Below are positions 2,556-5,500 of a stretch of DNA of 21,535 nucleotides, in pieces; the stretch's first letter is position 1; every line of letters starts with the position of its first letter. The position numbers and the translations under genes are program-made. The stretch lies in contig JACOUH010000213.1 in assembly GCA_016177925.1 (NCBI GenBank), forward strand, positions 1 to 21,535. The letters are read 5' to 3'. The stretch comes from Planctomycetota bacterium. Its GTDB lineage: Bacteria; Planctomycetota; Planctomycetia; Gemmatales; Gemmataceae. Below the pieces are notes generated by a model. It saw nothing but the letters and a program-made list of their open reading frames with translations, did not search any database and had not been told where the DNA came from.

Positions 2556-5500
2556 TCACTCCTTGGTGATCGTCTCGTCGAGGTTCAAGAGCAGCCGAGC
2601 CGTCGCAGTCCACGCGGCGGATTGCGCGGGGGTCACGCCGGCCGGTAGTTTCGGCGGATGCGACGGGTCCGAGGCGGCGAGGTCCCACGGCCGGGCGCCC
2701 GGGGCGGAGAATCGATCCGTCTGCTTCTTCAAGAAGGCCAGCAGCACGCCCAGCTCGCGCTCCGACGGCGTGCGGGCGGTGCAGCGGCGGAAGGCGTCGA
2801 CCAGACGCGCGCGGTCGTCGGGCCCGCCATCGGACAGGACCTTGCGAGCCAGGGCACGGGCGCTCTCCAGGAACAGGGTCTCGTTCAGTGTCGCCAGCGC
2901 TTGCAGGGGAGTGTTCGAGCGCGGCCGGCGCACGCAGGAGGCATCGCCGTTGGGCGTGTCGAAGGCCGTCAGCACCGGATATGGCACCGAGCGAAAGCGG
3001 AAGGTGTACAGGGCACGGCGGTAGCGGTCGTCGCCCTTGTCCTCTCCCCAGGTCTTGGGACCATAACTCGTCGGCGGGACGAACAGGAAGCCCGGGGCCG
3101 GCGGATGGACGGGCGGCCCGCCGATCTGCCGGCTCAGCAGCCCGCTCGCCGCCAGGGCGATGTCGCGCACCACTTCGCCCTCGACGCGGAACCGCGGGCC
3201 ACGCGTGAGCAGCCGGTTGTCCGGATCGCGCTTCGCCAACTCCGGCGAGACGCGCGACGACTGCTGATAGGTCGCACTCGTCACGATCAGCCGGTGCAGA
3301 CACTTCAAGCTCCATCCGCTCTCCATGAACTCCACGGACAGCCAGTCGAGCAGTTCGGGGTGCGTTGGCGGTTCGCTCTGCACGCCGAGGTCCTCGCTGG
3401 TGGCGACCAGGCCCGTGCCGAAGTACGCCTGCCAGACACGATTGACCATCGCTCGCGCCGTCGTTGGGCTTTGACGGTCGACCAGCCACTTCGCCAGCCC
3501 CAGGCGGTTGTTCTCCGCGCCGGGCGGCAGTGGGTGCATCGACGCAGGGACGCCCGGCTGCACGGGCCGCGACGGCTTGAGGAAGTTGCCGCGTTCGAGC
3601 AGGAACGTGGGCCGTGGGCTCGCACGAGCCATCAGCGCCAGCTGCGACGAGCCGGCCGGATGCTGCTTCCATAGCGCCTCGATCTTCGCATTGGCGTCCT
3701 TCCACTCGGCGACGGTCGTGCGCCAGTAGCTGAAGATTGCCGCGCGACCCGCTGACGCGGGTGCCCCGGCGGGAGTACGGCGATCGGGGGGGACCGATAA
3801 TAGCAACCGCACCCCACGCGGCACTGGGTCGGCGGAGGGATGGTCGGCGCCCGTCACGGAGAAGCGGAAGCGGCCGAGGTTGTTGTTCTGATTGTCGTCG
3901 CTGTTCCAGCCACCGTGCATCTGCTTGAGGCTGAAGGTCAGCAACGCCCCGTTCGGCACCTCCATTGGCCGGTCCGGCACGAACACGGCCTTGCGATCGA
4001 CATTGCGGCGACCCGGCCCGGCGTCGATGCCCCAGGCGGTCAGGTCGTTGCCGTCGATGGCGTACGACACCGGCCCGGTGACGCGCTTCTTGCCGGCGCG
4101 ATCGTCGAACATCGGCTCCAGTGGCTTCTCGTCATTGCCGAAATCGGCCGTCGCGGCGATGAGCTTGACCCGCTTCTTCTCATTCGGCTTCTTGGGATCG
4201 GCAACCTCGACCGTGAACTCGGTCAGGGCGAACAATCCGAGCGGCGAGCGGCCCGGCCCACCGAGCGGCAGGTCAGGGTCGGTGAGCAGTTCCAGGCGGA
4301 AGCCGGTGATCTTCTTCACCTCGGTCCGGCCGGCAAACTGCGAGGTCCACTTCGTCGGCGCGTAGCCCCCGGCCGTCTGGGAGCCGTCGTCGTGGTAGAC
4401 GTAGCGCTGGCCGTTGTCGCCGGCATTCTCCACCTTGACGACCTGCCACGGCAGCTCGTCCTTGCGGGTGCGCTCCTCCCATTCCGCCAGGCGTTTTTCC
4501 CAGTCGGGGCTTCGATGCTTCAACCCCTCCTCGCTGTCGCGAATTTGACGCAGCAACTCGGCGCGTTTCCGCTGCTCGGCGAGCGAGTAAACGGCGATGT
4601 TGGCCTCGTGCGTGTCGTTGACGTAGGCGAAGAGGCGGTAGTAGTCTTCCTGCGTGATCGGGTCGAACTTGTGGCTGTGACACTGGGCACAGGCCAGCGT
4701 CAGACCAAGGACGCCCTTGCCCAGTGCGTCCATGCGGTCAAACATCGCTTCCATGCGGAACTGCTCGGGGTCAATGCCTCCCTCCTCGTTGATCATCGAG
4801 TTGCGGAGGAACCCCGTCGCCACGCGCTGGTCCTGTCCCGCACAAGCCCCAAGCGCCAGCGCGGGGACGTCCCCGCGCTGGCGCTTGGGGCTTGTGTCCG
4901 GCAGCAGGTCTCCGGCGATCTGTTCGATGATGAAACGGTCGTAGGGGAGATCGCGGTTGAGGGCGGCGACGACCCAGTCGCGATACATCCAGGCGGTGCG
5001 CGGCTTGTCCTTCTCGTAGCCGTCGCTGTCGGCGTAGCGGGCGGCGTCGAGCCAGTGCCGTCCCCAGCGCTCGCCGTAAGCAGGCGAGGCCAGCAGCCGG
5101 TCGACGAGGCGCTCGTAAGCGCCGGGCGCGCGATCGGCCAGGAAGGCGTCGACCTCGGCAGGCGTCGGTGGCAGGCCGAGCAGGTCGAGGCTGAGTCGGC
5201 GGATCAGCGTTTCCTTACTGGCTGGCGGGCAGGGGTACAGTCCCTCGCGCTCCTGCCGGGCGAGGACGAAGAGGTCGATGGGATTGCGAGCCCAGGCGGC
5301 CTCTTTCACCTTCGGAAGGGGAGGGCGGACCGGCGGGACGTAGGCCCAGTGGACCTGGTAGGTGGCTCCGTCGGCGATCCAGTTGCGCAGCAACTGGATC
5401 TGCTTGCCGGAAAGCTTCTTGCCCGTCTGCAGCGGCGGCATGACCTCGGTTTCTTCCTTGCTGCTGACGCGGCGGATCAGTTCGCTGGCGTCGGGCTTGC

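Follow-up and report, generated by a model that had tools for sequence, protein, structure and literature searches.

A planctomycete hairpin-repeat doublet probably inserted in-frame in the PSCyt2 domain of a PSD-family protein

Rickettsia palindromic elements (RPEs), about 100-150 bp long, are the classic in-frame palindromic elements of Rickettsia, and the proteins that host them are apparently functional. REPINs are doublets of repetitive extragenic palindromic (REP) sequences mobilised by Y1 transposases, the REP-associated tyrosine transposases (RAYTs), and the correction of quasipalindromes by template switching is an established mutational mechanism in bacteria. REPs are typically intergenic, with a convergent or co-directional distribution, and REPs carrying GTAG or CGTC tags are also known inside genes, including DNA-repair genes (PMC3733652); further, in-frame REPs have been described inside the RAYT genes themselves (PMC6006769). 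Quentin et al. (2018, PMC6006769) report that class 3 TnpA-Y1 genes, which come mostly from Planctomycetes but also from Acidobacteria and Proteobacteria, have hairpins on their flanks that occur in high copy number and bear a 5' CnGA foot. Here, we analyse a 21,535-nt stretch of contig JACOUH010000213.1 (hereafter the window), from a Planctomycetota bacterium of the Gemmataceae, in which a PSD-family gene contains a perfect 56-nt palindrome. We conclude, with a probability of about 0.8, that this palindrome is a doublet of a Planctomycetota hairpin repeat family, named here after its core, ACAAGCCC, that was inserted in-frame into a loop at the surface of the PSCyt2 domain.

The palindrome and its host gene

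The palindrome (window positions 4841-4896) consists of two 28-nt arms that are 100% complementary and have a spacer of 0 nt (CACAAGCCCCAAGCGCCAGCGCGGGGAC followed directly by GTCCCCGCGCTGGCGCTTGGGGCTTGTG). Arm 1 (4841-4868, plus strand) holds the family motif ACAAGCCCCAAGCGCCAGCGCGGGGA at 4842-4867, and arm 2 (4869-4896, minus strand), preceded by CGGA on the coding strand, is its exact reverse complement; together, the two form an inverted doublet of ACAAGCCC..GGGA units. An original prediction had described the same object as a 27-nt arm, CG and a second arm; it is given here as 28+28 without a spacer. The accompanying claim that such a palindrome is improbable by chance stands, in that no dinucleotide-preserving shuffle of the window held the arm twice, and none of 200 shuffles folded as stably as the palindrome does as a single strand (-44.6 kcal/mol as DNA and -71.4 kcal/mol as RNA, z about -11). 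Rfam gave no match anywhere in the window. An intrinsic terminator was considered and rejected, as no run of T follows the hairpin on the coding strand.

The host gene (2556-5732, minus strand) is an intact open reading frame (ORF) for a 1058-aa protein with PSCyt1, PSCyt2 (DUF1549) and PSD1 (DUF1553) domains (Pfam E-values of 3e-19, 2e-86 and 6e-97, respectively), arranged as in PSD-family proteins. This protein is 86-88% identical to its nearest relatives, and a DUF1501 gene lies downstream, as it likewise does in orthologous loci. The PSCyt2 domain extends from 4608 to 5282 (minus strand; aa 151-375), and the insert falls in a coil between two predicted helices. As predicted, the reading frame passes uninterrupted through the palindrome, and it stays open because 54 nt were added net and the unit, like the complete 56-mer, can be read through without a stop in each of the three frames. 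A protein with an extra, disordered loop of 18 residues is presumably made by the cell. The same gene has a further 6-aa insertion, PASAGR (3738-3769, minus strand; aa ~657-663), that is unique to the window sequence and whose DNA contains a palindrome with a 6-bp stem, ACCCGC-GTCA-GCGGGT.

An alignment with 120 homologues (61-86% identical; 121 sequences with the window protein) locates the insertion. The short linker GDLLP-x-A/P-(T/G)QDQ-x-VATGF occurs without an insert in 113 of the 120, and the site is also empty in 74 of the 76 metagenome orthologue loci readable there among the matches listed. The metagenome scan for relatives, in which the best of the matches listed was 73% identical, served only to count empty sites. 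The net insertion (4842-4895, minus strand) is 54 nt long (27+27; ACAAG...CTTGT) and adds 18 codons, aa 280-297, with the peptide TSPKRQRGDVPALALGAC sitting between x and A of GDLLPx / A-GQDQ; the outer C (codon GAC) and G (codon GCG) of the flanking codons stretch the palindrome to 56 nt. ORF, Pfam and alignment evidence thereby agree with the predicted position inside the coding sequence of the DUF1549 region, between GDLLP and VATGF, where relatives have only a linker. The predicted gain of roughly 18 residues was also right, and only its boundaries had to be corrected: the added peptide is TSPKRQRGDVPALALGAC, and the AGQDQ that follows is native.

The repeat family in Planctomycetota

The first link to a wider family comes from an orthologue that is 63% identical to the window protein (P0097, locus L004), in which 33 nt at the same loop represent one arm of the same sequence, ACACAAGCCCGGAGCGCCAGCGACGGGAAG, translated in another frame as TQARSASDG. 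From the window and L004 arms we derived a search pattern, ACAAGCCCNNAGCGCNAGCGNNGGGA, with 21 specified bases, and scanned it against a species-representative genome collection; the data on copies thus come from genomes other than the source. This single-arm search yielded at least 165 matches in at least 105 genome stretches, both genic and intergenic. Those listed fall nearly all in metagenome-assembled genomes (MAGs) labelled Gemmataceae, Gemmata, Pirellulales, Planctomycetaceae, Planctomycetia, Phycisphaerae or 'Planctomycetota', and among them there are genomes with multiple matches, such as MFD02248.bin.2.136 and SMAG_U11579. Repeat-rich contigs of CAMDDA01 (L015, L035, L036, L061, L064, L076-L081 and others) come from a MAG that bears the label Candidatus Kuenenia stuttgartiensis, and single matches occur in MAGs labelled Melainabacteria and Gammaproteobacteria (L011, CAVPCF01; L029, DATACK01); because these repeats are of the Pirellulales or Gemmataceae type, the labels or the binning of all three may be wrong.

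The unit is about 28-30 nt long, with the core ACAAGCCC-NN-AGCGC-N-AGCG-NN-GGGA(C). In Gemmataceae-type genomes, its usual form is an inverted doublet, tGACACAAGCCCGrAGCGCCAGCGmCGGGAC - loop - GTCCCGkCGCTGGCGCTyCGGGCTTGTGTCa, with loops down to 1 nt unpaired (L017, L026, L074, L108), which is the hairpin seen in the window. Pirellulales-type genomes carry the unit cATACAAGCCCTGAGCGCAAGCGAcGGGATc together with a diverged partner, GATCCCCCGGCTTGCGCCGGGGGCTTGTATG. Both types of genome also contain head-to-tail arrays with a period of 32-42 nt (L025, 4114-4235; L027, 135-244; L033, 57-154; L052, 4-174; L087, 883-1039), some of which end in an inverted copy; because their spacers measure only 6-16 nt, these arrays resemble bacterial interspersed mosaic elements and not CRISPR. 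The window itself has an intergenic hairpin at 6229-6282 (22-nt arms, 10-nt loop) whose arm, AGCCCGACGCGCAAGCGAGG, resembles the superfamily (AGCCCnnnGCGCnAGCGnGG).

The genomic context of the copies was assessed from the codon periodicity of the 300-nt flanks and an open-frame check, which left 91 assessable sites among the matches listed. Only 5 of these (~5%) are genic and in-frame, namely the window copy and those at L009, L037, L075 and L083, and the other 86 are not. Sites between convergent genes number 19, against 1 between divergent genes; a further 23 of the 91 have same-strand flanks in different phase, and the remaining sites have at least one non-coding flank. Hence, most copies would lie downstream of genes, between convergent or co-directional neighbours. 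Pfam domains on both sides of the repeat confirm the four other genic cases, which are an FG-GAP/ASPIC protein (L009) and a kinase-nSTAND-FGE protein (L037) of Gemmataceae, UvrA of a Pirellulales MAG (L075, 4634-7999, minus strand) and a GH2/CBM protein of Pirellulaceae (L083). In this UvrA, residues 477-560 span residues 383-420 of a solved UvrA (3zqj), leaving about 46 extra residues built of repeat units (TQARSASVGT..IQARSMSDGT). Many long ORFs that run across other repeat copies were discarded as genic, having no Pfam domain and an implausible sequence. A search for the ACAAGCCC motif, with up to 3 substitutions, in PSD-orthologue loci totalling 518 kb found it only at the PSCyt2 loop, in the window, L191 and L004.

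We propose that a short, GC-rich repeat family abundant in Planctomycetota forms, in Gemmataceae, a REPIN-like inverted doublet that folds into one long hairpin, and that one such doublet most likely landed, in-frame, in the PSD-family coding sequence, at the surface loop of PSCyt2. The family would behave as a selfish or host-tolerated hairpin repeat, as REPs and REPINs do, and its intragenic copies would be rare survivors, in-frame and in tolerant loops. Doublets of the CCCCAAGCGCCAGCGCGGGG type would then be expected in the source genome. The original suggestion of an in-frame palindromic insertion comparable to REPs or RPEs gains support from the absence of the segment in orthologues, from the multi-copy and mostly intergenic nature of the family, from the four other in-frame genes and from the existence of empty and filled alleles, which are described below.

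The doublets also share a paired structure. Among the matches listed there are 41 inverted doublets, 16 of them with no mismatch between the arms, and in 26 of the 41 both arms have identical bases at 5 variable positions, compared with 6.65 under random pairing (maximum 15 in 2000 trials). A covariation test on 30 aligned doublets with a 30-pair helix found changes on both sides at 9 pairs (52 cells), including columns 14/67 (GC 16, AU 11) and 25/56 (AU 19, CG 10), with a covariation score that none of 500 shuffles reached; this compensatory pattern is equally explained by doublets being copied as whole units, with no selection on single copies. Standard pairs filled 94.1% of the cells, falling to 34-43% when the partner was slid by 1-3 columns, but the doublets had been chosen beforehand with no more than 3 arm mismatches, which raises the percentage paired.

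This preselection is one of several points that weigh against the insertion of a family doublet. No second copy of the arm or motif lies elsewhere in the 21,535-nt window, and a motif scan of 1.23 Mb of loci, taken as 8-kb pieces per genome, linked no transposase to the ACAAGCCC family, the ORFs between repeat clusters being ordinary genes. Further, no target-site duplication is visible at the window copy (flanks ..CCGGA / CGGGAC..), the nearest empty alleles having been compared as protein, nor is there a consistent one at intergenic doublets, whose flanks (..tGA / TCa..) are inverted instead of direct. Finally, the AlphaFold (AF2) model of aa 130-420, in which the insert is a coil with a predicted local distance difference test score below 50 between fragment helices 135-147 and 171-175, is of modest quality (predicted template modelling score 0.48), so the assignment to a loop rests partly on the alignment.

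Turnover of the insert and of the loop that holds it

Comparison with close relatives revealed gain or loss of the insert over short distances. Specifically, P0054 (SRR5262245) carries it at the same codon, as TSPERERRDAPALALGAR, whereas P0122, from the same Sequence Read Archive run and cluster and 98.5% identical over 756 shared columns, has an empty site (LLPGAGQDQH), and the length difference between them is exactly 18 residues. Ten of their 11 substitutions fall within aa 116-309, adjoining the 18-aa indel, and this clustering suggests that a recombination tract was exchanged together with its filled or empty site. P0001 (JGI 3300047160), with 88% identity to the window protein, likewise has an empty site. 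In P0121 (locus L191, JGI 3300079482; 86.8% identical), by contrast, an orthologous 54-nt insert occupies the same position, with a third-codon-position identity between the two genes of 72.5%. Its right arm has 3 point changes relative to the window, and its left arm, of a 'GG.G.AC' subfamily, has 6 clustered differences at or adjoining the variable positions of the family, so that 9 of the 27 arm pairs of the insert do not match, or 11 of 29 when counted over the 58-nt alignment.

Fold-back library artefacts can yield perfect, spacer-less palindromes, and a hairpin chimera or other error of sequencing or assembly has to be weighed accordingly. We give this reading next to no credence, because the flanks are collinear with the 120 orthologues and are not inverted copies of each other, and because the same insert occurs at the same codon in two independent datasets, those of P0054 and of P0121/L191; the net length is also a multiple of three.

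The insert peptide is 67% identical between the window and L191, compared with 96% over the flanking 100 codons, which indicates that it is weakly constrained, and it is probably a passenger. A role for its RGD motif was rejected, since P0054 and P0121 have RRD. For 27 perfect pairs under free drift, a rough estimate of the probability is 0.75^27, or ~4e-4. Because the window arms are perfect while the orthologous insert of the relative is decayed or hybrid, a recent event in the window lineage seems likely, whether the insert arrived afresh, was converted by another copy or had one arm corrected against the other within the hairpin.

These observations also bear on whether the insert has been kept for its usefulness, either as a peptide (a basic, RGD-containing loop) or as a 26-bp mRNA helix (an RNase III site, or a translation pause that tunes expression or export). 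The high stability of the RNA helix (-71.4 kcal/mol) would fit such a role, as would the perfection of the arms in a lineage that is ~13% diverged, in protein, from its insert-carrying relatives, and the compensatory covariation across the family. Nevertheless, we consider retention for usefulness improbable, given that the peptide is poorly conserved, that the hairpin has decayed in L191, that the insert is missing from one of two near-identical alleles (P0054 and P0122) and from close relatives such as P0001, and that the covariation is equally accounted for by the copying of doublets as units.

Another alternative is that the palindrome arose locally, with a single arm, such as that in L004, being inserted and then made perfectly palindromic when replication folded back or switched template, so that a complete doublet was never inserted. 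The perfect arms and missing spacer would be accommodated by this scenario, the loop of the distant orthologue L004/P0097 does contain a single arm of the family, and the membership of the L191 arms in different subfamilies implies that at least one arm was rewritten in one lineage. We nonetheless judge it very unlikely. Doublets of the same geometry with 1-nt loops are the standard intergenic form (in the four loci named above), such that no local invention is needed; the L004 arm, with its different frame and junctions, reflects an independent event and not an ancestor; and template-switch correction of an existing doublet is already contained in the explanation by insertion of a family doublet.

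The loop itself is a recurrent site of insertion. Sporadic inserts of at least 5 residues follow aa 279 in 8 sequences of the 121-sequence alignment, and two more loop inserts were found among metagenome loci (L159, L164). Inverted doublets of the ACAAGCCC family occur there in the window, P0054 and P0121, and single arms in P0084 and P0097 (L004). The other inserts are a CCCCTCACCCCTTACCCCTCTCCCCCcGGGGGAGAGGGGTGGGGGTGAGGGG hairpin in P0002 (L001), hairpins built on C and G runs in P0046 (L002), a GGCTATCGGCC...GCCGATAGCC inverted repeat in P0079 (L003), 8 residues (GNNPGSPR) in P0070, 7 additional residues in L159 and 38 in L164 (3370-3546), where tandem 9-nt (TTCGACGGG) and 15-nt (AAGCTCACCGCGGGC) repeats encode STGSTGSTDSTGSTDS and SLPRASSPRASSPRA. 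At the DNA level, the inserts of L001, L002 and L003 and the ACAAGCCC doublet are palindromic or inverted repeats, that of L004 is a single arm and those of L164 are tandem repeats. The same loop has therefore received at least seven independent repeat insertions, from several unrelated families, and on this basis, with four of them shown to be palindromic, we regard it as an insertion hotspot. As the junctions vary by 1-2 codons, this would mainly reflect a permissive loop, and thus selection, rather than a precise target sequence. A weaker second site follows aa 806, with inserts in P0034, P0079 and P0121. A further family, CCCTCTCCCC..GGGGAGAGGG, with peptides like SPSPPRRGEGGVRG or PLPPGERGGGEG, is present in-frame at this second site in L191 (after EFME), at the aa-279 hotspot in L001 (10001-13150) and between genes in L005 (16104-16137).

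A more speculative reading, which we hold to be possible but doubtful, is that the GDLLP-ATGF loop is an active landing pad to which repeat families are directed by local DNA structure or microhomology (CCCGGCGC, which is common to the empty site and the repeat core), with the doublet then kept self-complementary by hairpin-templated repair.

Relation to known repeat systems and implications

The ACAAGCCC family resembles REPs and REPINs in several respects. Its units are short, GC-rich, high in copy number and mostly extragenic; they are imperfect palindromes themselves, which combine into inverted doublets that form a long hairpin and into tandem and mosaic clusters; and they favour positions downstream of genes (19 convergent sites versus 1 divergent), with occasional in-frame genic copies, here including UvrA. 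However, the family lacks the GT[AG]G tag and the terminal CGTC tag, having instead a 5' GA context that is CnGA in 24% of arms. No GTAG was seen before the arms, CACAAG being preceded by CGGA, TTGA, CTGA, CGCA and others, and TACAAG mostly by CCCA. Further, its core stays nearly constant across several orders of a single phylum, and a motif scan of the 1.23 Mb of loci revealed no RAYT gene flanked by the family. The sole Y1_Tnp-like ORF there (L105, 2862-3662, minus strand; NHVH..WQ..YIAGNP, 22.8 bits) is RAYT-like and is flanked on both sides, within 2623-3725, by GTAG-tagged hairpin arrays of another family (CCCGTAGGCCCGTCACTCCGTGACGGGCT); it is an apparent REPtron in a planctomycete-like MAG.

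Tagged hairpins of other families also occur in the window. Three intergenic hairpins just after gene ends (10476-10547, 12524-12587 and 16824-16877), with arms of 23-31 nt, two of them perfect, start with GTAG or GTGG (GTAGGGCAGGCG.., GTAGGTCAGGC.. and GTGGGGCAGGTC..) and each of their arms is palindromic in its own right. In appearance, these match classical REP doublets with a GT[AG]G tag and would belong to a different family. Yet another sequence type is represented by an intergenic hairpin at 7923-7971, CGGGCCCAAGGGCAAGCC - 12 nt - GGCTTGCCCTTGGGCCTG.

As in RPEs, a palindromic repeat lies in-frame in an ORF, leaves the frame open and adds a peptide in a tolerated region (the window, L009, L037, L075 and L083). 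The element here differs from RPEs, as these are described, in its length of 54-60 nt, in its apparently unrelated sequence, in the low share of intragenic sites (~5%) and in its free-living Planctomycetota hosts. It differs from miniature inverted-repeat transposable elements in that the whole element is an inverted repeat and no consistent target-site duplication flanks it. Quasipalindrome correction, in which a single event rewrites an arm, fits the contrast between the window and L191, with 6 clustered left-arm and 3 right-arm changes; it is, however, a mutational process and not an element family, and the outcome of ectopic conversion or of a fresh insertion would look no different.

A possible likeness to the hairpins of class 3 TnpA-Y1 genes, compared here by published description only, lies in the CnGA foot, which is present in a minority of copies: CnGA precedes 14 of 59 CACAAG-type arms (background frequency 1.9%), and nnGA 26 of 59; at the window copy, these four bases are CGGA. 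A motif search of the 1.23 Mb of loci, which covered each genome as 8-kb pieces, detected no class 3 tnpA-like ORF (NHVH ... YV[VI]xEQ). We treat this connection as a lead, with mobilisation of the ACAAGCCC family by an uncharacterised Y1 (class 3) transposase as a possibility. In the literature searched (open-access papers and preprints), neither the ACAAGCCC motif nor its peptides were found, chance string matches in three unrelated papers aside. In-frame REP insertion as such is already known (PMC3733652, PMC6006769), and only this family and its phylum context appear new.

The analysis brings to light a repeat family shared by Gemmataceae, Pirellulales, Planctomycetaceae and Phycisphaerae, and it shows that, as in Rickettsia and REP-rich proteobacteria, such hairpin repeats supply conserved proteins, UvrA among them, with new peptide segments. 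For genome annotation, the family explains many odd low-complexity inserts (peptides of the TSPKRQRGD, TQARSASDG and PSLALRAC types), and it probably accounts for many spurious small ORFs in planctomycete genomes. Three aspects go beyond a routine repeat insertion, namely the phylum-wide near-constancy of the core, the repeated striking of one loop by unrelated families and the orthologous pair of a perfect and a degenerate copy. The combination of presence/absence polymorphism with this contrast offers a tractable case of the gain, homogenisation and loss of palindromes inside genes, and, if the loop does act as a landing pad, it would provide a natural system in which to follow the concerted evolution of a palindrome inside a translated gene.

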